Translations under genes and position numbers: made by a program
Source of the DNA: a virus
Strand: one strand, 5' to 3'
UHGV virus genome: UHGV-1386588
Length of the DNA: 40,673 nt
In this document: piece after piece, positions 2,863 through 35,191 of the stretch
Layout: every line of letters starts with the position of its first letter
Numbering within the stretch: position 1 is the first letter of the stretch
Notes under the pieces: generated by a model
Databases searched by the model: none
What the model saw: only the letters and a program-made list of their open reading frames with translations
Told to the model about the DNA's origin: nothing

Positions 2863-3542
2863 TAAAGTAATCTCCCCCATGCGCCGTCATCAAAACCGGC
2901 GATGTATTCGTTATCCATGTCAAATCCAAAGAATTTTGTTCCTTCGGACGGTGTTTCGACCGAGGGTGTTTCAACGCCGCCAGCCCATACACCAGCAGCT
3001 TTAACGGTGAGATAACCCTGTTTGATAGCGGCTATCAGTTCGAGTGACACATCAGAAATATCAGTCTCGGGAAAAACCCAGACCGATATCGTCATGTCCT
3101 GGTTATCGACGATCTGCATCTTCAGTCCAGAGCCTGCGGTAGCAGCGTCAAGGATGGGAGGCAGAGAGTCGTTCCGACCATCCCAGTTGTTGATAGCGAT
3201 TTTCGCTTTCAGAATGATGCGGTACGTCTCATCACTCAGCGTCGTATAGCCAGAATCAGGATCATATGGCCCTTGCCAGATGCCCTGGTCATATCCGAGC
3301 CCGTCAGTGTCCCAGCTGAAATAAACGCCGCTAATTGGCTGGCTGACTATACGACTACGCCCAATCCACAGGCCGAGGATATCGAGTTGCACGCCAACCG
3401 CCGTATCGATATCGAAGGCTGTTACAAGCCCTGACATAGTGCTGGACACATCAATCAGCGGGCGGGTGCTCAGATCTATATGGTCAAAAAAGAGTGGCTT
3501 GGTAGCGTGGTAGTTAGTGATCAGTTCGGTGTATTTGCTCAT
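2862..3542 (-). CDS. baseplate protein (Mu gp48 / P2 gpI-like)
   Basis: 226 aa, between the J-like gene and the fibre; ATG overlaps the upstream stop (ATGA). Family recalled from gene order and size, not searched. Confidence 0.6.
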   Translation of the reverse strand: MSKYTELITNYHATKPLFFDHIDLSTRPLIDVSSTMSGLVTAFDIDTAVGVQLDILGLWIGRSRIVSQPISGVYFSWDTDGLGYDQGIWQGPYDPDSGYTTLSDETYRIILKAKIAINNWDGRNDSLPPILDAATAGSGLKMQIVDNQDMTISVWVFPETDISDVSLELIAAIKQGYLTVKAAGVWAGGVETPSVETPSEGTKFFGFDMDNEYIAGFDDGAWGRLL

Positions 3543-4738
3543 GAGGTCACCGTGATAGTGACGTGACTCGCAACGCATGACGCAGATTCGTCATAAGCAA
3601 TATCGATATTTCCGCTTGCGACTGAGTCAGAGGATTTGCCGATGAGCAGCTCCTGAATGTCGTAATAGCGAGCACTGCCTCCGCTTACCACGCCAAGGTT
3701 TGCCGGGGAATAAATACGACTCAGCAGAACGTCGTCGCCAATTGTCAGGCCATTAATATAGCCGGCAACAGCCTGTTTGATCTGCTCGCCGATTTGAGAG
3801 GTATACCCGGTAAAAACTTTCAGGGTAATGGCTACGAAAATTGGCACATCGGTAGAGCGTGAAAAACTGATGACGTGAGGATTACCGTAAGTATCCGGCA
3901 CCGTGACAGAAGTTGTCCCGTAGGTTGCCGTTCCCTGTCCTTTATTCCCCCTGATGGTCTGGGCTATTTCGGTAACATCCCCACCATCGACGATGGCGGA
4001 AATTGAGTGCGGCGGCAGCCCGTTGCTGTCTGTTGTTCCTGTGTCGTTCTCATACAACTTGTGACGTGTCACGCCAGCAACGTTAGCTATTGCACCGTCG
4101 ACACCTTCAAACGGTGTGATCGATGGTAGCGCGACGCTTTGCCCCTGCCGAATGCGCAGCTCTGCGTCGGTTTCGGCTGGTGAACCGACAGTAGCCGAAG
4201 CTGGGTTGGTTACCGACACCCAGCCGCGAGTCGGTGTGTTAATGGTGGTAATAGTCCCGGCCATCGCCGCAACCGAACCGCTATTCGCACATGTGGCCGT
4301 CACCAGCACAGTACCATCAACGCCGATCGCTACACTTGCGGGAAAATTCCAGATAATGCCGTTTTTATCCCGTGCGGAGCCATTCGTGATAGTCGTGCCT
4401 GCCGTACCGGTTAACAGAAGGTCAGCAGTAGAGTTTGTCGCTACTTTTCGCGTGATCCCGTTAATTTTCACATTGCTGCTAAGCGCTGCGGCCTGCGCTG
4501 TCGTCGGTGAAAAAGAGTTGTAGATCCCGATAGCGGTGTTGTTAGCGTCATGCACCGCAAGAGCCACCAGCGCGACCATCTGCCCGTCTTTGCTGTCTGG
4601 TTCGAGGTAGGCATCACTACCGTAAATCTGCCTGAAATAGCTGGTCAGTGTATCTAGGATTGTCTGGTAATCAGGCGCACTAATCCCCTGGGCGGTTACC
4701 GTTGCCGATAGCCCCAGCGTGTCGAGGTTCAAAGCCAT
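3539..4738 (-). CDS. baseplate J-like protein (Mu gp47 family)
   Basis: 399 aa, Gly/Thr/Ala-rich structural protein in the conserved position after the gp46-like gene; ATG at 4738 directly after the upstream stop. Confidence 0.7.
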   Translation of the reverse strand: MALNLDTLGLSATVTAQGISAPDYQTILDTLTSYFRQIYGSDAYLEPDSKDGQMVALVALAVHDANNTAIGIYNSFSPTTAQAAALSSNVKINGITRKVATNSTADLLLTGTAGTTITNGSARDKNGIIWNFPASVAIGVDGTVLVTATCANSGSVAAMAGTITTINTPTRGWVSVTNPASATVGSPAETDAELRIRQGQSVALPSITPFEGVDGAIANVAGVTRHKLYENDTGTTDSNGLPPHSISAIVDGGDVTEIAQTIRGNKGQGTATYGTTSVTVPDTYGNPHVISFSRSTDVPIFVAITLKVFTGYTSQIGEQIKQAVAGYINGLTIGDDVLLSRIYSPANLGVVSGGSARYYDIQELLIGKSSDSVASGNIDIAYDESASCVASHVTITVTS

Positions 4739-5092
4739 TTATGCCTCGCTTGTTACAGTCGTCTGGCCGTAGATTGTGTCAATGGAGGAAGTGAAGGTGA
4801 CGCGACGGCTGGTGCCGTCATAATTGGTATCGAAGGAAAGAATCGACAGAACGCCCGGTGTATCCTGTATGCGTTCGCGTATAGCCAGGATGTAGACATC
4901 TGATCGCTGCTTCCCAAGCACTGACTGAACATACGGCGTGCCTTCCGTCAGATCGAGAAACCACTGACCGCGCCACAGCTCGAAACGGGTTTTTACGGCC
5001 TGGGCGACACATTCCGGACTGTCGATAAGGAAAGTATCGTCACCCTGGCCGAAAGTGTAATCGCCTTCAGTATCTTCGCGACGGTATCGCAT
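4739..5092 (-). CDS. baseplate protein (Mu gp46 / GPW-like)
   Basis: 117 aa; ATG at 5092 overlaps the stop of the spike gene; position between spike and J-like genes. Confidence 0.6.
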   Translation of the reverse strand: MRYRREDTEGDYTFGQGDDTFLIDSPECVAQAVKTRFELWRGQWFLDLTEGTPYVQSVLGKQRSDVYILAIRERIQDTPGVLSILSFDTNYDGTSRRVTFTSSIDTIYGQTTVTSEA

Positions 5093-5832
5093 TATTGCGG
5101 CCCTCCGGTAGTTCCCCCGCCAGTCTGTACTCCGCCATGTTTATGCGTGGCGACACTGATACCAGAAGCTGTTACGTCATTCGTTACCGTCACCGGCCCA
5201 AGCATCGTCGCAGTACCGCCGCTTTCTCCCATTCCCTGAGACAGGTTACCGTTAATCGTTACGTTGCCGTTCAGCGTGATAGTCGGGGATGTGATTGTCG
5301 TTCCACCCTCAGCCGTAGCCGTAAGCTTGCCCGGCGTTTTAACGGTGATGTTATGCCCTGCTGCGACCTCTACGAACGCCGAGCCATCATCGGTTCGCAG
5401 CTGCGCGGCGCTGGTACTGATACCGCTGATTTTCTGCGCTTGCGACTGCGGGCCAACGATGGCGAACGCATCAGATAAGTCATGCTGGCGCGGGTCGACG
5501 GTCTCCTGAACGCCGCCGCTCTGCCACCAGAAATCGATGCAACGGTCGGCAAAGATCAGCAGGCACTCGTCGCCTTCTTTTACCGGAAAGGTCAGCGTGC
5601 AACCGCCGCCGCGCGGGAAGATAACCGGCACATCCACCAGCGGTTTTAATTCGGTGGAGCCATCGCCAACAATACCGCGAAGCGCTACCTCTACTGTGCA
5701 GGTAACAGTGTCAGGATCGAACGACTGAATGATGCCGGGCATCGCTACGCGCATCTGGGTAGACACCGAATCGGCAATGGCCTGCGCGGTCTGCTGCTCA
5801 CCGCCGATCTGTGATTGAGTTGGAATTGGCAT
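5092..5832 (-). CDS. baseplate central spike protein (gpV / Mu gp45-like)
   Basis: 246 aa; Gly/Thr-rich C-terminal beta-helix-like repeats ending SVATHKHGGVQTGGGTTGG (His-containing apex motif typical of gpV spikes). Confidence 0.8.
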   Translation of the reverse strand: MPIPTQSQIGGEQQTAQAIADSVSTQMRVAMPGIIQSFDPDTVTCTVEVALRGIVGDGSTELKPLVDVPVIFPRGGGCTLTFPVKEGDECLLIFADRCIDFWWQSGGVQETVDPRQHDLSDAFAIVGPQSQAQKISGISTSAAQLRTDDGSAFVEVAAGHNITVKTPGKLTATAEGGTTITSPTITLNGNVTINGNLSQGMGESGGTATMLGPVTVTNDVTASGISVATHKHGGVQTGGGTTGGPQ

Positions 5833-5837
5833 AAAAA

Positions 5838-5866
5838 CCCCATAAAAAAACCAGCCGAAGCTGGTT
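5838..5866 (-). terminator. rho-independent terminator (minus strand) between moron and spike gene
   Basis: Stem AACCAGC / GCTGGTT with CGAA loop, followed on the minus strand by TTTTTTATGGGGTTTTTAT. Confidence 0.7.
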
Positions 5867-6043
5867 TGGTATCAATTACTAAGCTACATCAGTGTGAAGT
5901 AAGGCTTTTCCGCTGCAATGGCACACATTCACAAGGTGTATTAGGATATGTTTGCAACAAGTAAGCATTAAAAATCAATTTCAGCCATGAAGCCGCCATA
6001 GAGTGGACCTGCACCATCGCATTCTTGACTACAGGAGTAACAA

Positions 6044-6334
6044 ATGGGATTTAGATTTCGCAAAAGAATCCGGATTGCGCCCGGACTCGCGATCAACATT
6101 AGTAAAAGCGGAGTAAGCACTTCAATTGGTGGTAAAGGTTCCACCATTAACATCGGGAAAAAAGGCGTAAAGATGACAAATGGCCTTCCCGGCACGGGGC
6201 TGTCGCATACCACTAACCTTTACTCTCCCGGGAAATCGACAGAAAAAAAACAACTTACTCATAAGCAAAAAATAATTAGAAACATCCTGTTCGTAATTAT
6301 TGTGTTTATTATAATTAAAGCTCAATATTTTTGA
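6044..6334 (+). CDS. small membrane-anchored protein, DUF4236-like N-terminus
   Basis: ATG at 6044 with strong RBS (ACAGGAGTAACAA-ATG); N-terminus MGFRFRKRIRIAPGLAINISKSGVSTSIGGKG matches my recollection of the DUF4236 signature; C-terminal hydrophobic helix ILFVIIVFIIIKA; transcribed opposite to the tail operon. Confidence 0.65.
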   Translation: MGFRFRKRIRIAPGLAINISKSGVSTSIGGKGSTINIGKKGVKMTNGLPGTGLSHTTNLYSPGKSTEKKQLTHKQKIIRNILFVIIVFIIIKAQYF

Positions 6335-6339
6335 CGCAT

Positions 6340-6370
6340 GCCCGCCTATCTGGCGGGCTATTTTACTTTT
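6340..6370 (+). terminator. rho-independent terminator after the DUF4236-like gene
   Basis: Stem GCCCGCC / GGCGGGC (loop TATCT) followed by TATTTTACTTTT; overlaps the stop codon of the convergent lipoprotein gene. Confidence 0.7.
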
Positions 6371-7236
6371 CGGCAGTCGTATGTTGCATACTGACGCGGC
6401 GAATCCATGCTGGCTTGCAACCACTGTGCGTTGAGAATGGCTTTGCCGTTTCGATTGATGTACTCAAGACCAACCCAGCGGCCAGGCTGGTCAGTATCAA
6501 CCATCCACTCCATTTTGACGTTATCCGGCTCACGGTTTGTACTGCCACCTGTACCAATTGGAGTAATTTTTTGCGTCTCTGGTTTCACGCCATTAATTCT
6601 GGCCCAACCATCAGCAGACGACAGGTCTATCGTATAAGGCCCACAAGTAGTCTTGTAGTTCACACCAAGTTTTTCGTTGCTGTGTGCTTTTTTGCTTTTT
6701 TCGTAATCGGCCTTCGCTACATCATTCATCTTTTGATAGATAGCAGGCTGCTGCAAAGAAAAATCATTTAGCCTCTTAACAAAAACCTCACGTGAAACCT
6801 CTGCAAGGCCCATTGGTTTTCTGTCAATGGTGTAGTCATCATATATCTTTGATATTACAGTTAATGATGAAAGATTTTTAGCTAAGTTATTTTCAAAGTT
6901 AAGGTAATTTAGCGGAGAATTATCTCTTACATCAATAGCCCCAACGCCACCGGTACCGTACTCATGATATGCAGCATAAAAAACAGGGATCATCTCTGGC
7001 TTTTTATTAATCGCCTTAATCAACCCTTCGGGACCGCAAGATTCCCCACTCCAGTCGATAAGCGACTTACCTTTCGATTGCCATGTTTGGCAATCGTCTG
7101 CCGATAAGATTAAAATTGGCTGCCACCCCGGGCGTTTTTTGTAACTAACATTCTTATCAGAATTGAAGCCTGCATTTGCGCATCCAGAAACGAGCAGCAC
7201 CGACAGGAAAAGCACACTGTATCGAAGTCCATTCAT
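6358..7236 (-). CDS. putative outer-membrane lipoprotein (moron)
   Basis: ATG at 7234-7236 gives MNGLRYSVLFLSVLLVSGC: n-region with Arg, hydrophobic core, lipobox LVSG-C, Ala at +2; 292 aa; no family recognised; AT-rich relative to flanking tail genes. Confidence 0.7.
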   Translation of the reverse strand: MNGLRYSVLFLSVLLVSGCANAGFNSDKNVSYKKRPGWQPILILSADDCQTWQSKGKSLIDWSGESCGPEGLIKAINKKPEMIPVFYAAYHEYGTGGVGAIDVRDNSPLNYLNFENNLAKNLSSLTVISKIYDDYTIDRKPMGLAEVSREVFVKRLNDFSLQQPAIYQKMNDVAKADYEKSKKAHSNEKLGVNYKTTCGPYTIDLSSADGWARINGVKPETQKITPIGTGGSTNREPDNVKMEWMVDTDQPGRWVGLEYINRNGKAILNAQWLQASMDSPRQYATYDCRKVK

Positions 7237-28449: not shown

Positions 28450-28785
28450 TTAGGCATCATCCACCTCTGGCTTTTTGAAATTAGCCTCGATGGACTCTCC
28501 TAGGCGCTTTAACCAATCAGCCAGTTTGAGCGCCGCGTCTTCCGGAGTTTTCTGTCCCGGAAAATCAGTGATGATGATGCTGGCTTGATGATTACCAAAC
28601 CCATCTCTGTTTATCACCATTCCCTGCTCAAGCACCGTCTGTTGGTTGCTGTGCTTAACGTAGTAACGAGCCTCAGAGCTTCCAGTGCTGCGCTCTTTGA
28701 CGTAAGAGACAAGCTCCACCTCAGTGGTGATGGTCTTACCACGCTCCGCCTCAAGACGCTGAATTAGCTTAACGAAATCGTTCAT
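28450..28785 (-). CDS. hypothetical protein (nin region)
   Basis: 111 aa, ATG at 28785 overlapping the upstream stop. Confidence 0.5.
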   Translation of the reverse strand: MNDFVKLIQRLEAERGKTITTEVELVSYVKERSTGSSEARYYVKHSNQQTVLEQGMVINRDGFGNHQASIIITDFPGQKTPEDAALKLADWLKRLGESIEANFKKPEVDDA

Positions 28786-29564
28786 TCGGCCTCCTGCTGC
28801 GGTGCAGCTGCCTGCTCAGCTGCCATAGCCGCATCGATTTGCTCGCGTAATTTAGTCGCGTGATAATCATCCTCTTCATCCGTGATGGTCTGCGACCAGA
28901 AAAGGCTATGGCTTCCGTAAACCATAGGCTCACGAACATCAACGGTTTTCGATACCAGCCAGTCCATGCGGCGTACGTCATCTGGAATCACCGGAGAGTT
29001 GCCACCCTGAACAGTAGGCATATCCGGACCTTTGCGAATCGCCATGGCAAGATCGATTTGGTCGTCGTACAACCAGTCACCTGTTTGCGGATGATTGGCT
29101 TCTGCCAATTGTGCAGCCCACTCCAGGCCGTCTTTGTGTCCTTGCAGATAGTCCAGCGGTAACTCATCACTATTACTTACAGGTTCGGCCTGAAGCATGG
29201 CGGCGCGATAGGCGTTCCAGCCGACAGCTTTTCCGTGTTCAAACGCGCTGTCAAAGTCATCATCAATTTCCATCGCAGCGGGCACAGATACCGGCGCTGG
29301 CGGGGCGGTATAAAACTTCGTCCCCAGCGGAAACAACTTCATCGCTTTTTCTCCCTTAATGATGCGATAAGTTGATTTCCCGCCAAGGTCTACCGTTCCA
29401 TCCATAATAAGGCCGTATCGCTTCTCTGAAACTTCACCAATAGGATCTGCTTCCAGTGATGCCAAAGCAATCCGTGCCACTTCCATTTGTTCGCTACGAG
29501 TAAGCCCGTTTTCAAGCGGATTTTTAATGAACAATTCAATACGTTCTTTGGTAATAGTGCTCAT
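28782..29564 (-). CDS. hypothetical protein (nin region)
   Basis: 260 aa, ATG at 29564 with GGTGAGGA RBS. Confidence 0.55.
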   Translation of the reverse strand: MSTITKERIELFIKNPLENGLTRSEQMEVARIALASLEADPIGEVSEKRYGLIMDGTVDLGGKSTYRIIKGEKAMKLFPLGTKFYTAPPAPVSVPAAMEIDDDFDSAFEHGKAVGWNAYRAAMLQAEPVSNSDELPLDYLQGHKDGLEWAAQLAEANHPQTGDWLYDDQIDLAMAIRKGPDMPTVQGGNSPVIPDDVRRMDWLVSKTVDVREPMVYGSHSLFWSQTITDEEDDYHATKLREQIDAAMAAEQAAAPQQEAE

Positions 29565-29567
29565 GGG

Positions 29568-29999
29568 TTAGTCCTCACCTTTCTGTTGCACTACCGGAAC
29601 CGATAAATCGACGCACCAGGAGATAACGCCGAATTGATCATCGTTCTGCGCTTCACCCCAAACGTAATATTTTGATCCTGGCCGACCCATTGCCGGGTCA
29701 AATACTTCTATGCCGCGTTCTGCCGTTAACGACATCAGAATCTGATGCAGGCCGCCTTTGATGTTCAGTGACGGAACGGTCAGGAAGTAAATAAACCCGT
29801 AAAGCAATTCGGCCTTGCGCTGGCTTCCGTAAAAATACGGGATTTTGTAATAATCCAGCGCGTCGTCGAGCCAGTCTGTTTTGTCGTGGAATTTCTGATG
29901 CCAGCGTTCCACTACCTCATCGACAGGTTGACCGGCAACCATTGCAACGCAGGTAGCCATGCAGGTGTTAAATGTTGGCTGCATTTGATGTTGAAGCAT
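29568..29999 (-). CDS. putative papain-like cysteine peptidase (C39-like fold)
   Basis: 143 aa; Q-x5-C motif (QPTFNTCMATCVAMVAG) near the N-terminus, then GGLHQILM and VFDPAMG: the Gln / Cys / His / Asp-Pro order and spacing of C39-like peptidases. ATG overlaps the upstream stop (TGATG). Motif-based only. Confidence 0.5.
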   Translation of the reverse strand: MLQHQMQPTFNTCMATCVAMVAGQPVDEVVERWHQKFHDKTDWLDDALDYYKIPYFYGSQRKAELLYGFIYFLTVPSLNIKGGLHQILMSLTAERGIEVFDPAMGRPGSKYYVWGEAQNDDQFGVISWCVDLSVPVVQQKGED

Positions 30000-30712
30000 C
30001 ACTCCCCCTTACCGATGCCAGCGGCGCGGTCTATGCGTTCGATTTCAGCCAGAATTAAAGCCCATGCTTTTACCAGGTTGCGACGGCGGGCATTTGGCTT
30101 CCACCATGAAGCATCCCAAGGCCACCCCCACGGCTTGCCACCATTGCGGTTAACAGTTCCTGTTTCGTTTATGTAACAAACCGCCGCCATTGCCAGTTCG
30201 CCGTTGCAGTGCTCGTCATCATGCTCAGGCGTCCATCCCTCAACTGATTGATGGCGTTGACGCTCTGCAATTACTGACTGAACGGCATTGGATAGCGATT
30301 TCACACCCTGCGCACGCACTTCAGCCAGGAAAGCGTCGGTGGCTGGGGTTTTGGCATTCTCCAATAATGCTATTGAATCCTGAGCGTCACAAAGACGTAA
30401 TAGTGCGTCCATTTGCTCGCCATCAGCGTCATAGCTGAATAGACCATGATCATCATGATGTGCTTCCATATTTTCTGAGGCCTGCAGTATTCCAGACTTC
30501 AGCCCAGCATTCTCCACAGCCAGCGCCGCGCACTTGGCCTCAAGGTTATCAATCGTGATTCCAGCAGAACGACACTCCCGCAACGCCGTTTCTAGTTTTG
30601 ATTCAAGTTCACCGAACTTACGGACAAGATATTCAGCGTTTGTTTCGTTAACCTTTAAATCTCGTGGAATGCACTTGCCACGCAGAAAACCTTCCATCTC
30701 AAATAATTTCAT
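29999..30712 (-). CDS. hypothetical protein (N-terminal coiled coil, Trp-rich C-terminus)
   Basis: Start at ATG 30710-30712 overlapping the upstream stop (ATGA); 237 aa; C-terminal WTPEHDDEHCNGE...GKPWGWPWDASWWKP motif; family not recognised. Confidence 0.5.
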   Translation of the reverse strand: MKLFEMEGFLRGKCIPRDLKVNETNAEYLVRKFGELESKLETALRECRSAGITIDNLEAKCAALAVENAGLKSGILQASENMEAHHDDHGLFSYDADGEQMDALLRLCDAQDSIALLENAKTPATDAFLAEVRAQGVKSLSNAVQSVIAERQRHQSVEGWTPEHDDEHCNGELAMAAVCYINETGTVNRNGGKPWGWPWDASWWKPNARRRNLVKAWALILAEIERIDRAAGIGKGE

Positions 30713-31053
30713 ACCCCTGCCCTCCCCCAAACCATCAATACTCGCTTCATCGCCGCGCTGTTGCGGCACTCCTGGCAGATCACGTTTGCCTCTGTACGCT
30801 GCACCAGCTTCGAATTTCCCTTCGGCATAGCCGGGATTGTTTCTGGTGCGTATTTCATGCCGTAATCGGTCAGCCGATAAAGCCGCTGTCCGTGCTTGCC
30901 TTCGAACTCGATCAAGCCGTCTGCCAGCAGCGTGCTCACCGTTCCGGATATCTTTTTGGTGGTCATGCCGATAAGCCCTGCCAGTTTGGCGTTGTTCAAC
31001 CCTGGGTTGTTGCGCAGGGCTGCCAGCAGTTGCTCACGAATTGTTATGGTCAT
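30709..31053 (-). CDS. small winged-helix DNA-binding protein (putative)
   Basis: Start at ATG 31051-31053 overlapping the DnaB stop (ATGA); 114 aa; REQLLAALRNNPGLNNAKLAGLIGMTTKKISGTVSTLLADGLIE looks like a MarR-type wHTH. Confidence 0.5.
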   Translation of the reverse strand: MTITIREQLLAALRNNPGLNNAKLAGLIGMTTKKISGTVSTLLADGLIEFEGKHGQRLYRLTDYGMKYAPETIPAMPKGNSKLVQRTEANVICQECRNSAAMKRVLMVWGRAGV

Positions 31054-32486
31054 CAGAACCCCCCTTTCTTTTTCGGCTGCTGCTCGCGCCCGCGGCGTTC
31101 TGCGGCGGCGGCCTGCTGGTCTGTGTCGTAAATTGCCCCGTTGATCTGATTGCAATAAACCGTTCCGGTACTGCCGTGGCGGTTGAGTCGCAGGATTAAC
31201 TCGGTTTCTCCAGGCGGCACGCTGTCATCGAAAGCACCTTCCCGGTGGATGCCAACCCAGTAGTCGCAGTCCTGCTCAATCTGTCCTGTGTCGCGGGAAT
31301 CGCTCGGCAACGGGCGTTTATTCACTCGCTTCTCCAGTTCGCGGTTGAGCTGGGTCAGCAGCACGACGACGCAGGCAAGCTCTTTGGCGAGGTTCTTCAA
31401 CCCTTTGGTGATCATCCCGTAGGCCAGGTCATTACGGTCGGCTTTTTCGGCTGTCATCAGCGTCAGGTAGTCAACCAGGATCATGCCTACGCAGCCCTTC
31501 TCGCGTTTGATTCGGCGGCTTTCGCTAACGATGTGCGCCAGTGACAGTCCCGGAGTGTCGTCGATGTACAGCATGTCGATTTCACTCAGCCGGCCAGCTG
31601 TAGCGATCGCCTTCTTAAAGTCTCCGTCGTAGTCGCCCTGGTACTGGTCATCGGCGTCATCCGTGGCGGGCATGTAAAAAATGCTCGGATTTACGCCGGA
31701 CTTCTGACCAACCAGTTTTTCGAGGATCTGGTAGCCCGGCATTTCAAGGCTGAACATCAGCGCTGGCTTTTTCTCACGAACCGCGCAGTTGATCGCCATC
31801 TGACCGTACAGGGTTGTCTTGCCCATCTTTGGCCTTGCGCCAATCACGAACAGAGAGCCTTTAACCAGACCTTTCGGCGCCAGCAGCCGGTCGAGTGACG
31901 GGATGCCGGTGCTCATGCCGCGCTGTTCGCCTGAAGGGTCAAAGCGTTTCTCCAGATCTGCTACCCAGTCATCCATAACCTCGCCGAACGACCGCAACCC
32001 ACGGCGACTACCGGTTTTTGAATGGTCTGCGAGCTGGGTGAAAATACCCTGAATGGCCTCGTACTTCTGCGTGGCGCTCATGCCATTGCGGGAATACAGC
32101 AGCTCAGTAGCTTCGGTCAGGCGGCTGATACCGTAGCGCTCCATTGCGGCTTCCCGGACTGACGCAGCGTATGCCACGATGTTTGCAGCGCTGGGAGTGT
32201 TCTTGGCTATCTCCGCCAGGTAAGCAAAGCCACCTACCTGCTCAGCGAGTCCTTTTCCTTCAAGCGCGTCGAACAATGTCAGGCCATCGACTGGCTTGTT
32301 GTCGCGGAACATCTGGCGCATCTCGGCAAAGATCAGCTGGTGAGGTCGGCTGTAAAACGACTCAGGCTTGAGCATCGCCAGAACCTTCTGGACTCGCTCG
32401 CTGTTGTCATCATCCAGCAGCAGGCCACCGATAACGCTCTGCTCTGCTTCGAGGTTTTGTGGTACGGCCATGAAATCAGCGGTCAT
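31053..32486 (-). CDS. replicative DNA helicase (DnaB family)
   Basis: N-terminal DnaB-like domain (EAEQSVIGGLLLD...ESFYSRPHQLIF); Walker A GARPKMGKTT; DnaB H2-H4 motifs; start +/- 5 codons (GTG 32489, ATG 32486, ATG 32471). Confidence 0.88.
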   Translation of the reverse strand: MTADFMAVPQNLEAEQSVIGGLLLDDDNSERVQKVLAMLKPESFYSRPHQLIFAEMRQMFRDNKPVDGLTLFDALEGKGLAEQVGGFAYLAEIAKNTPSAANIVAYAASVREAAMERYGISRLTEATELLYSRNGMSATQKYEAIQGIFTQLADHSKTGSRRGLRSFGEVMDDWVADLEKRFDPSGEQRGMSTGIPSLDRLLAPKGLVKGSLFVIGARPKMGKTTLYGQMAINCAVREKKPALMFSLEMPGYQILEKLVGQKSGVNPSIFYMPATDDADDQYQGDYDGDFKKAIATAGRLSEIDMLYIDDTPGLSLAHIVSESRRIKREKGCVGMILVDYLTLMTAEKADRNDLAYGMITKGLKNLAKELACVVVLLTQLNRELEKRVNKRPLPSDSRDTGQIEQDCDYWVGIHREGAFDDSVPPGETELILRLNRHGSTGTVYCNQINGAIYDTDQQAAAAERRGREQQPKKKGGF

Positions 32487-33381
32487 CACGATCCCCCTCG
32501 CGCACTTCGATGTAGAGCTTTTCGGTCAGGAACTTATCGAATTTCATGCGGCGCCAGGTCTTCCCGGATTTCTGGTCTGGTCGGTCTTCAAGCATCCATC
32601 GGCAGTTCTGAGCGATGTAACGCAGATAACTTCTGAAACCGTCCATGTCCATCGGCTTGCCGTCCAGGTTGCGGGCAATTTTGTTAGCCTTACCCCAGAA
32701 TGTGCGGATCAGATTGCGTCGCTCATCAGTGAGGCATCTCCATCCCCTGGCTTCAGGCAGTTCGTCTTTCAGGCATTGCCACACTTCATCGCATGACAAA
32801 CGAGACTTTTTCTCTTCAGCGGGTTTCTGGTCATTTGCGACATACTTACTACCGTTAGGTAGTAAGTTATTTAATATATTGTTATCTGTGGACACTGGCT
32901 GGACATCGGCTGGACACTCCACCTCCACAGGCATTGATATAACTGCGTTTGCGCTGGACACCGGCTGGACATCGGCTGGACAAAAATTTGACTGATATTC
33001 GTCATATTTGACCACTTTTAGAACAGTAAAACGGTTGTTCGATTTGGTGGTGATCATGCCCAGGTTCTGGAATTTACGGAGCAGTGATTTAACGCGATCA
33101 GCGGTCAAACCCGTTTCCATTGCCAGCGTGTTTCGCCCGGTAATGAACTCTCCGCGCTCGCAGATCACATCGCCGACATCAGTAGATACCAGTGTCTGTT
33201 CGTGATTAGCACGCAGGAGCATGTGAACCCATAAATGAGCCGCCTCAGCGTCCTTGTAGAACGGCACATCCATAATTTTACGGTGCAGCAAGGCAAACCC
33301 CTTACCGTCATTCGTGCGCGGTTTCTGGAGCCTTCTGGCCTCTCTGGCTTCGGCTAAATTGGATACGTTACCCACGGCCAC
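32476..33381 (-). CDS. replication initiator (lambda O-like) carrying the ori iterons
   Basis: About 300 aa immediately upstream of the helicase; iteron cluster inside the coding sequence produces repeated CPADVQPVS peptide units; start uncertain (GTG at 33381 or 33375). Confidence 0.65.
   Translation of the reverse strand: MAVGNVSNLAEAREARRLQKPRTNDGKGFALLHRKIMDVPFYKDAEAAHLWVHMLLRANHEQTLVSTDVGDVICERGEFITGRNTLAMETGLTADRVKSLLRKFQNLGMITTKSNNRFTVLKVVKYDEYQSNFCPADVQPVSSANAVISMPVEVECPADVQPVSTDNNILNNLLPNGSKYVANDQKPAEEKKSRLSCDEVWQCLKDELPEARGWRCLTDERRNLIRTFWGKANKIARNLDGKPMDMDGFRSYLRYIAQNCRWMLEDRPDQKSGKTWRRMKFDKFLTEKLYIEVREGDRDDR
32889..33030. repeat. replication origin: iterons plus AT-rich region
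   Basis: Two clusters of three TGGACA(C/T)(C/T)GGC repeats at 11-bp spacing (32889-32919 and 32956-32981), the second followed by an AT-rich tract (32982-33030). Confidence 0.7.
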
Positions 33382-33603: not shown

Positions 33604-34146
33604 TCACATAACCCCCAACATCGAAGTGACCATAGCCATCAGCGGCGCGGTCAGATCCGGGTCGACACGGAACATCTCTACAATCCCCTCACTGAGTTCC
33701 TTGAGCTTCTGGTGACGCGGGGCGTTCATCGCAACGGCCACTTTCGCCTCGCTCGTTTCTTTCTCAAGTCGAGCTAAGCGGGACATAAAACTGTCCTCTG
33801 GAAGAAGTCGATGGCGATACTCCAGCGGCAAAACGGCCATGATTGCGGGCGTCAGCTGGCGCACGTTCTCGCGGTACTGCTCAGAGTCGAAGCGGTTATC
33901 CAGGAAGCGGAACAGCTTCTGGCGCGCCCGGCTGATGTCGTCCGGAAAGCTGATGGCGGTCCCGCCCTGCTCCCGGTATTCGTTGATGATCAGCGCTGAC
34001 ACCACGTCCTGATTATCCAGCGCCGATGACCAGGCACGGACCGCATCGCGGATCTTTTCGTGGTCCGGCGTCGCTTTAGCTTGAGCGCGGTTTATCATCG
34101 CTCCCGGGTGTATTCCGGTATTGTGTTGATACGCAAGTGAATGCAT
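33604..34146 (-). CDS. YdaT-like protein (cII-position regulator / putative toxin domain)
   Basis: 180 aa, ATG at 34146 with AAGGGA RBS, directly downstream of the cro-like gene; segment LTPAIMAVLPLEYRHRLLP resembles E. coli Rac YdaT as I recall it. Confidence 0.5.
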   Translation of the reverse strand: MHSLAYQHNTGIHPGAMINRAQAKATPDHEKIRDAVRAWSSALDNQDVVSALIINEYREQGGTAISFPDDISRARQKLFRFLDNRFDSEQYRENVRQLTPAIMAVLPLEYRHRLLPEDSFMSRLARLEKETSEAKVAVAMNAPRHQKLKELSEGIVEMFRVDPDLTAPLMAMVTSMLGVM

Positions 34147-34163: not shown

Positions 34164-34397
34164 TTAGGCCGCAGTATCACGCGGCGATGCGAATACCAGG
34201 CTTTCTTTTAGGACCGGAGCCTGGCGGTGAAAATTCTTCGTGCCTTTCTCGATAGCAGATGCCATTTCTGGAGATGCCCGGCGATTTCCGTAGGCGATCT
34301 GGTCCAGGTAACCTGGCGTCGTGTTAGCCAACTTTGCGAGCTGCGCCCATTCGTCGGTAGTGGCGGCCTTGCGCCAGCGGTGTAGTTCAGTGCTCAT
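34164..34397 (-). CDS. cro: Cro-like HTH repressor (YdaS/Cro family)
   Basis: 77 aa, ATG at 34397 with GGAGA RBS; HTH DEWAQLAKLANTTPGYLDQIAYGNRR; divergent from the cI gene across the operator region. Confidence 0.75.
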   Translation of the reverse strand: MSTELHRWRKAATTDEWAQLAKLANTTPGYLDQIAYGNRRASPEMASAIEKGTKNFHRQAPVLKESLVFASPRDTAA

Positions 34398-34513
34398 TGG
34401 TGTCTCCGGGTGAGTCGTTTGATTTGGAGTTTAGCGTTATGCTAAATACTACGCAAGCATCATTTAGCAATTTGCACATTTATCATTTTGCTAAAAGCAG
34501 TAACAATGCAGGT
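34398..34513. promoter_or_regulatory. OR operator / divergent promoter region (pR, pRM)
   Basis: Perfect 17-bp palindrome TTTAGCGTTATGCTAAA (34430-34446) and related site TTTATCATTTTGCTAAA (34479-34495) between cro and cI starts. Confidence 0.7.
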
Positions 34514-35191
34514 ATGGAAAATAAAGAAATCAGAAAAGCCAACCTGGAAGCGCTGTACGAGAAGCGTCAGCACGAGTCTGGAATGACCAAAGCGCAGTTT
34601 GCCGAGCTCATCGAGACAAGTCCGGCTGCGCTTAGCCAGCTACTGGGACCAAACCCTCATCGCAATATCGGCGATAAGATGGCTCGCAAAATTGAAACTG
34701 CGCTTGATCTGCCTTTTGGCTGGATGGATGTTTTACACGCCAGTGAAGAACCTTCGAACGTTGCATTTCGAGGACTGAACGAGACAAAAGGAAGTTATCC
34801 TGTAATCAGCTGGGTAAGCGCGGGGCAATGGATGGAAGCTGTAGAACCTTATCACCGAAGAGCGATAGATCGCTGGTATGACACGACTGTTGACTGCTCA
34901 GAAGATTCATTCTGGCTGGACGTTAAAGGGGATTCTATGACCTCCCCGGCTGGACTAAGCATACCCGAGGGAGCAGCGATACTTGTTGATCCTGAAGTCG
35001 AGCCGCGCAACGGAAAGCTGGTTGTCGCGAAGCTAGAAGGCGATAACGAAGCGACCTTTAAGAAGCTTGTAATCGATGCCGGCAGACGCTTCCTAAAGCC
35101 CCTTAACCCCGCATATCCAATGCTAGAAATTAATGGAAACTGCAAAATCATCGGCGTTGTGGTTGATGCCAAAATACTAAACATCCCATAA
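34514..35191 (+). CDS. cI: CI-type prophage repressor (HTH + S24 LexA-like peptidase domain)
   Basis: N-terminal HTH (MTKAQFAELIETSPAALSQLL); C-terminal S24 motifs (GDSM Ser, downstream Lys); start at ATG 34514 (MENKEIRK...) as upstream ATG 34439 lies inside the operator palindrome. Confidence 0.85.
   Translation: MENKEIRKANLEALYEKRQHESGMTKAQFAELIETSPAALSQLLGPNPHRNIGDKMARKIETALDLPFGWMDVLHASEEPSNVAFRGLNETKGSYPVISWVSAGQWMEAVEPYHRRAIDRWYDTTVDCSEDSFWLDVKGDSMTSPAGLSIPEGAAILVDPEVEPRNGKLVVAKLEGDNEATFKKLVIDAGRRFLKPLNPAYPMLEINGNCKIIGVVVDAKILNIP

Follow-up and report, generated by a model that had tools for sequence, protein, structure and literature searches.

A predicted stand-alone C39-like cysteine peptidase from a lambdoid prophage and its widespread phage family

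Peptidase C39 domains (PF03412) cut double-glycine leader peptides in bacteriocin, AMS and PCAT ATP-binding cassette (ABC) transporters, among them ComA, PCAT1, LahT and CvaB. Here we describe a gene for a protein of 143 residues (29568-29999, minus strand) in UHGV virus genome UHGV-1386588, a stretch of 40,673 nucleotides that we call the window and that is a mosaic lambdoid (phi80/CobraSix/HK639-like) enterobacterial prophage. On the combined strength of sequence comparison and a structural model, we think it probable on balance that this gene encodes a cysteine peptidase of papain fold, soluble, cytoplasmic and catalytically competent, which is distantly homologous to the C39 domains but stands alone, is carried as movable accessory cargo and acts by itself in the lytic phase, cutting a protein of the host or of a rival element.

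The 143-residue protein departs from the C39 transporters in several respects. It is phage-encoded, lies below Pfam detection and stands alone, without an ABC transporter or membrane domain, and neither an HlyD partner nor a precursor peptide is encoded near its gene. It has no hydrophobic or transmembrane segment, signal peptide or cell-wall-binding domain, and we take it to be cytoplasmic because a hydrophobic segment is lacking. Within the sequence, C-x3-C replaces the C-G of C39 and V-P-S-L-N replaces P-C-I-L-H-W ahead of the His-bearing strand, whereas an invariant Tyr112 is a feature of its own family.

Other described proteins come less close. Stand-alone C39-like proteins include a putative C39-like peptidase of Bacillus anthracis (PDB 3erv), members of Pfam Peptidase_C39_2 and a 'Peptidase C39 domain-containing protein' of Bacillus phage vB_BcoS-136; the sequence likeness of Peptidase_C39_2 to the present family is negligible (1 of 142 members, at E 0.04), and proteins of the 3erv and vB_BcoS-136 type are likewise functionally uncharacterised. 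The YopT/AvrPphB family (C58), whose members are secreted effectors or toxin domains acting on lipidated eukaryotic GTPases or kinases, and the C-terminal cysteine protease domain of PfhB2 match more weakly than C39. Josephin-type deubiquitinases and the bacterial Josephin-like ubiquitin 'clippases' show lower structural likeness, with no sequence-level match to the 143-residue protein and no ubiquitin-like context at its loci. A C39 resemblance has been given before as an annotation label only, in a table of PMC9409062, and the GenBank record of Salmonella phage SeF6a bears the same label. No functional study came up in our literature searches, which were aimed at characterised C39-like or cysteine proteases of phages that have a part in anti-defence.

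Fold and active site of the 143-residue protein

The structure of the protein was modelled with AlphaFold2 from 65 homologues, with high reported confidence (predicted local distance difference test score, pLDDT, 93.8; predicted template modelling score, pTM, 0.89). In the model, Cys13 starts the first helix, His85 starts a strand and Asp101 lies just past the next strand, so that an N-terminal Cys-bearing helix packs on a β-sheet carrying His and Asp, the arrangement of clan CA peptidases. The four catalytic residues expected of that clan (Gln, Cys, His and Asp) are conserved throughout the family. A minimal papain fold is well supported as a prediction, and the papain-like architecture that a first-pass annotation of the sequence had proposed was recovered by the model.

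The residues concerned lie in three motifs, Q7-x5-C13, GGLH85Q and VFD101PAMG. The linear pattern Q-x5-C...H-x15-D arises in 0.6% of shuffled versions of the protein and is weak evidence by itself. That about 230 relatives keep it invariant, together with the fold, places it far beyond chance. In an alignment of 233 sequences, mostly 25-40% identical to the query, Cys13 is kept in 226 of 226, His85 in 230 of 230, and both Asp101 and Pro102 in 229 of 229; Gln7 is kept in 225 of 226, with Asn in the one remaining relative, and Tyr112 in 226 of 230. None of the homologues aligned at these positions lacks the Cys or the His.

Kinship with C39 emerges from the comparison of profiles. When the family profile was aligned with hhalign to one built from 10 genuine C39 domains of ABC transporters, that of CvaB included, the match spanned 99 columns with a probability of 96.3% and an E-value of 1.5e-9, pairing the Q, the C, the H and the D-P-x-x-G motif of the two groups. 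The spacings Q-x5-C and H-x15-D are the same in both, and a hidden Markov model (HMM) alignment to LahT150 places Gln7, Cys13, His85 and Asp101 on Q21, C27, H101 and D117 (LahT150 residues counted from an alignment start at residue 15). The Gln-Cys-His-Asp order and spacing that the first-pass annotation had read as C39-like is thus borne out by family conservation and by this alignment, and its assignment to a C39-type papain-like peptidase is one on which the modelled fold and the profile comparison agree. A Pfam search with Peptidase_C39 gave a divided answer: 31 of 142 diverged family members match (best E 2.4e-6), whereas the 143-residue protein does not, staying below the 22-bit gathering threshold and giving no PF03412 match even at E-values up to 1.

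Structural searches point the same way. C39 domains came at the top when the model was compared with the PDB by Foldseek, and a fold search of BFVD returned uncharacterised phage proteins together with one distant, C39-annotated Bacillus phage protein. Sequence searches of the PDB were less informative: the single protein gave nothing useful, and the family profile gave marginal matches to PfhB2 (E 0.07) and LahT150 (E 1.3). A fucose-lectin match of the same profile was a repeat artefact, and weak matches of the 143-residue protein to RhaT were judged spurious.

By these comparisons the protein is a homologue of C39 and not a canonical member. Cys13, at the N terminus of the first helix, would be the nucleophile by homology, with His85 and Asp101 completing the triad and Gln7 forming the oxyanion hole; the hydrogen-bonding geometry of Cys, His and Asp is taken from the alignment to C39 structures alone. 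As regards fold and active site, alignment and model together bear out the peptidase reading.

A large phage family and its changing gene neighbourhoods

The protein matches the HMM of phrog_4049, annotated as 'unknown function', over its full length (E 6.9e-52; residues 1-140 against positions 2-144 of 145). Clustered at 50% identity, the relatives recovered by an exhaustive profile search form at least 1,344 clusters with E-values of 1e-3 or below, 793 of them at 1e-10 or below, and most of the best 150 relatives are 135-160 residues long. Longer or fused members are few (metagenomic P0148, P0144, P0217, P0195, P0106 and P0085); they include one Phage_YunG-like fusion and one zinc-ribbon fusion, and several carry N-terminal extensions of 95-120 residues without a Pfam match. 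These may be genuine fusions, or separate genes merged in gene calling. The longer or fused members have no consistent partner domain in common.

The family is present in both virulent and temperate phages of Gammaproteobacteria, the virulent carriers including Kuttervirus, Certrevirus, Queuovirinae and Samunavirus. It is rare in Escherichia coli, where the gene occurs in 9 of 5,426 complete genomes, in keeping with the first-pass view that such a peptidase falls outside the canonical lambdoid set. Members recur in Kuttervirus, Queuovirinae and phiVC8-like Enhodamvirus (the SeF6a, Seurat, 9g and Vibrio phage H1 loci) and also in lambdoid prophages. The former three groups carry modified DNA and the lambdoid carriers do not; because those prophages also hold the family, the association with modified DNA may be coincidence.

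To compare gene contexts, we clustered all neighbours within 2.5 kb of the peptidase gene at 63 loci, representing 17 peptidase groups with under 70% identity between groups. No conserved neighbour emerged: 3 of the 17 groups is the most in which any one neighbour family is found, and an association with double-glycine precursors or HlyD-type proteins was likewise absent from these loci. The first-pass annotation had grouped the peptidase gene with the two genes upstream of it, for a 237-residue and a 114-residue protein, into a functional set of three. The clustering rejects such a module: the three genes are not kept together across the loci, the 114-residue protein is an ordinary Ren-like protein and the 237-residue protein a mosaic Ea22-like one. 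Both genes are unrelated mosaic neighbours, fillers of the nin region, and it would be wrong to treat the genes around the peptidase as a module at the operon level.

Closely related copies tell the same story of a gene that moves. Among near-identical copies, whose proteins share at least 99% identity, the Ea22-like protein on one flank ranges from 124 to 311 residues and the DUF551-like protein on the other from 103 to 465, a spread that points to recombination junctions inside the flanking genes themselves. In most copies at 79-90% identity the flanking genes differ, and several of these copies lie in the int-proximal early-left region; overall, prophage copies occupy either the nin region or the int-proximal early region. 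In Serratia the copies come after a gene for a DNA methylase within the nin region, and at one Serratia prophage locus (3827-6429) the peptidase gene overlaps the end of the gene for a 725-residue DNA methylase, another case of the gene travelling with different cargo. In E. coli EC2001 (locus 3001-3388) a 5'-truncated copy lies in a rearranged prophage beside pseudogenised recombination genes and IS26.

In virulent phages the settings are again different. In Kuttervirus the gene lies exactly between the genes for two DNA topoisomerase II subunits (Salmonella phage SeF6a, locus 2905-3435), where a MazG-like pyrophosphatase gene is found just upstream. It follows a DNA polymerase gene in a Brenneria phage and lies amid small early genes in Certrevirus, Samunavirus, Enhodamvirus and Queuovirinae. 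In Queuovirinae an 'HslV family peptidase' gene lies a few hundred bases downstream of it (Seurat, locus 2980-4114; 9g, locus 2980-4267), and endolysin and holin genes are 1-2 kb away; this HslV family peptidase is the only neighbour common to three peptidase groups, all from related phages.

Together these sequences define a very large phage family with an essentially invariant active site, in which the members listed are for the most part free-standing and about 140 residues long. A phage-borne, free-standing family of C39-like peptidases is a real finding and a variant of the known C39 kind. It would move the annotation of its members from 'hypothetical protein' to 'C39-like cysteine peptidase', and the kinship with C39 gives the family a concrete biochemical handle.

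Proposed activity and competing explanations

Since the gene lies in the rightward early operon, in the nin region that separates the replication genes from the antiterminator gene Q, the protein is expected to be made during lytic growth and not in the lysogen. It would act without partner proteins, hydrolysing a peptide or isopeptide bond through its thiol and, in the manner of C39 enzymes, probably cutting after small residues. The target would be a protein of the host or of a competing element and the purpose host takeover or counter-defence, a proposal favoured by the lack of a conserved phage partner, by the behaviour of the gene as dispensable cargo and by its presence in virulent and temperate gammaproteobacterial phages alike. 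Our best guess at the substrate is a host or defence protein that is cut in lytic growth. To our knowledge, few phage proteases with host proteins as substrates have been characterised, and our literature searches found none; the identity of the substrate could reveal a new mechanism of host takeover or anti-defence.

Several points weigh against this proposal. The Foldseek E-values against the PDB are weak (0.009-0.05, with template modelling scores of about 0.45-0.57), and the 143-residue protein alone gives no match in Pfam or NCBIfam. The preference for Gly at P1 and P2 is extrapolated from C39 enzymes. Moreover, papain-fold enzymes with Cys, His and Asp include deamidases, acyltransferases and amidases, so that cleavage of a peptide bond is itself something we infer.

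The last point leads to the alternative that survives best, in which the same fold and active site serve another chemistry: the protein would work as a deamidase, transglutaminase, acyltransferase or small-molecule amidase of papain fold that modifies a host protein or metabolite, on the model of the Cif/OspI-type deamidases or of phytochelatin-synthase or CHAP-type amidases. We consider this unlikely, given that the top structural and profile matches are all true C39 peptidases and that a Gln six residues ahead of the Cys, with D-P-x-x-G after the His strand, is a C39 signature.

A second question is how far the target can be narrowed. In a broader form of the proposal, phrog_4049 as a whole would be a widespread class of free cytoplasmic C39-type proteases that serve counter-defence and cut after a Gly-Gly-like motif in a component of host immunity, stripping or clipping the ubiquitin-like conjugates of Bil or type II CBASS or inactivating some other conserved gammaproteobacterial defence or stress protein. 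We hold this to be a long shot; were it true, proteolysis would be a general anti-defence strategy common to virulent and temperate phages. A more specific version makes the protein a de-conjugating enzyme or 'clippase' directed against bacterial ubiquitin-like immunity (Bil-type systems or the Cap2 conjugates of type II CBASS), cutting after a C-terminal Gly-Gly-like tail. This we judge improbable: Josephin and deubiquitinase scores are clearly below those of C39, no ubiquitin-like gene or link to a defence system appears at any clustered locus, no phage enzyme of this type came up in the literature search, and the 143-residue protein, like the 237- and 260-residue products of the adjoining genes, has no match in PADLOC-DB at E-values of 0.1 or below.

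The rarity of the gene as a mobile accessory of prophages, and its proximity to a Ren-like 'exclusion' gene, would also suit a factor for defence, abortive infection or exclusion that is expressed in the lysogen against other phages. Such a role appears very improbable, as the gene has no promoter of its own within a repressed early operon, occurs widely in strictly virulent phages, where no lysogen needs protection, and shares the negative PADLOC result. Abortive infection, raised in the first-pass annotation beside anti-defence and host-protein processing as a possible action on a host target, is disfavoured on the same two grounds of lytic early position and presence in strictly virulent phages. 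Finally, a lysis-associated peptidase acting on peptidoglycan cross-links, in the manner of prophage pseudomurein endoisopeptidases or CHAP/NlpC-P60 lysins, is hardly credible for a protein that lacks a signal peptide, a transmembrane segment and a cell-wall-binding domain and whose gene lies 4 kb from the lysis cassette in the window, with Q in between, and elsewhere sits amid replication or early genes.

Setting within the prophage early operon

All genes of the locus are on the minus strand, which the first-pass annotation had left out, and the rightward early operon reads along it in the order YdaT-like, O-like initiator, DnaB-like helicase, 114-residue, 237-residue, 143-residue, 260-residue and 111-residue proteins, NinB, YbcO, RusA, antiterminator Q and holin. 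The open reading frames, overlapping stop and start codons and motifs quoted earlier were all found as described. The stop codon of the DnaB-like gene (31053-32489; Pfam DnaB_C 1.4e-57, DnaB 2.6e-31) overlaps the ATG of the 114-residue gene (30709-31053) as TGATG, confirming that the genes read straight off the helicase gene; the junction with the 237-residue gene (29999-30712) is an ATGA overlap, and that between the latter and the peptidase gene again TGATG. Ahead of each start, within the preceding gene, lies a G-rich Shine-Dalgarno-like run.

The tight packing runs on downstream of the peptidase gene through the 260- and 111-residue genes, NinB, YbcO, RusA and Q, the first of these junctions being TAA-ccc-ATG with a gap of 3 nucleotides. 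A consensus scan of 27.5-34.5 kb found no excess of promoters or terminators. The run is the nin region of a lambdoid phage and contains no discrete unit of three genes.

The 114-residue protein, described at first as a winged-helix protein, indeed passes the Pfam HTH_24 model (8.7e-6; 25.7 bits against a cut-off of 21.9) and matches phrog_142, 'Ren-like exclusion protein', at E 1.9e-28. Its gene is 85-93% identical in nucleotides to the ren-like genes of HK639, mEp237 and HK225. The ordinary place of a ren-like gene in lambdoid phages is after the replication genes, and the 114-residue gene sits at this canonical position.

The 237-residue protein has more than 7,367 homologues, which RefSeq names ead/Ea22-like, and separate segments of it match many PHROGs of unknown function. 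Its sequence is of a helical or coiled-coil type and carries a Trp-rich module at the C terminus, and the Trp-rich stretch noted earlier, GKPWGWPWDASWWKP, is present; its AlphaFold2 model is poor and unreliable (pLDDT 46). The module (residues ~118-235, ...EGWTPEHDDEH...GKPWGWPWDASWWKP...) matches the C termini of many PHROGs of very varied lengths, up to 685 residues, and has thousands of homologues. The gene is an upstream neighbour of the peptidase gene and no functional partner.

Downstream, the gene at 28782-29564 encodes the 260-residue mosaic nin-region protein (phrog_60, 3.4e-28), whose RefSeq homologues are named DUF551 domain-containing, and the gene at 28450-28785 the 111-residue protein of unknown function (phrog_1258), which gives weak and probably spurious matches to Cmr5 models (NCBIfam 0.0085, PADLOC 0.0023). 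Upstream of the helicase gene are those for the O-like initiator (32476-33381) and, at a cII-like position in the interval between the repressor region and the O-like gene, a YdaT_toxin-domain protein (33604-34146; Pfam 6.9e-27), both likewise on the minus strand. Facing this operon from the plus strand is the gene for a cI-like repressor with Peptidase_S24 and HTH_3 domains (34397-35191).
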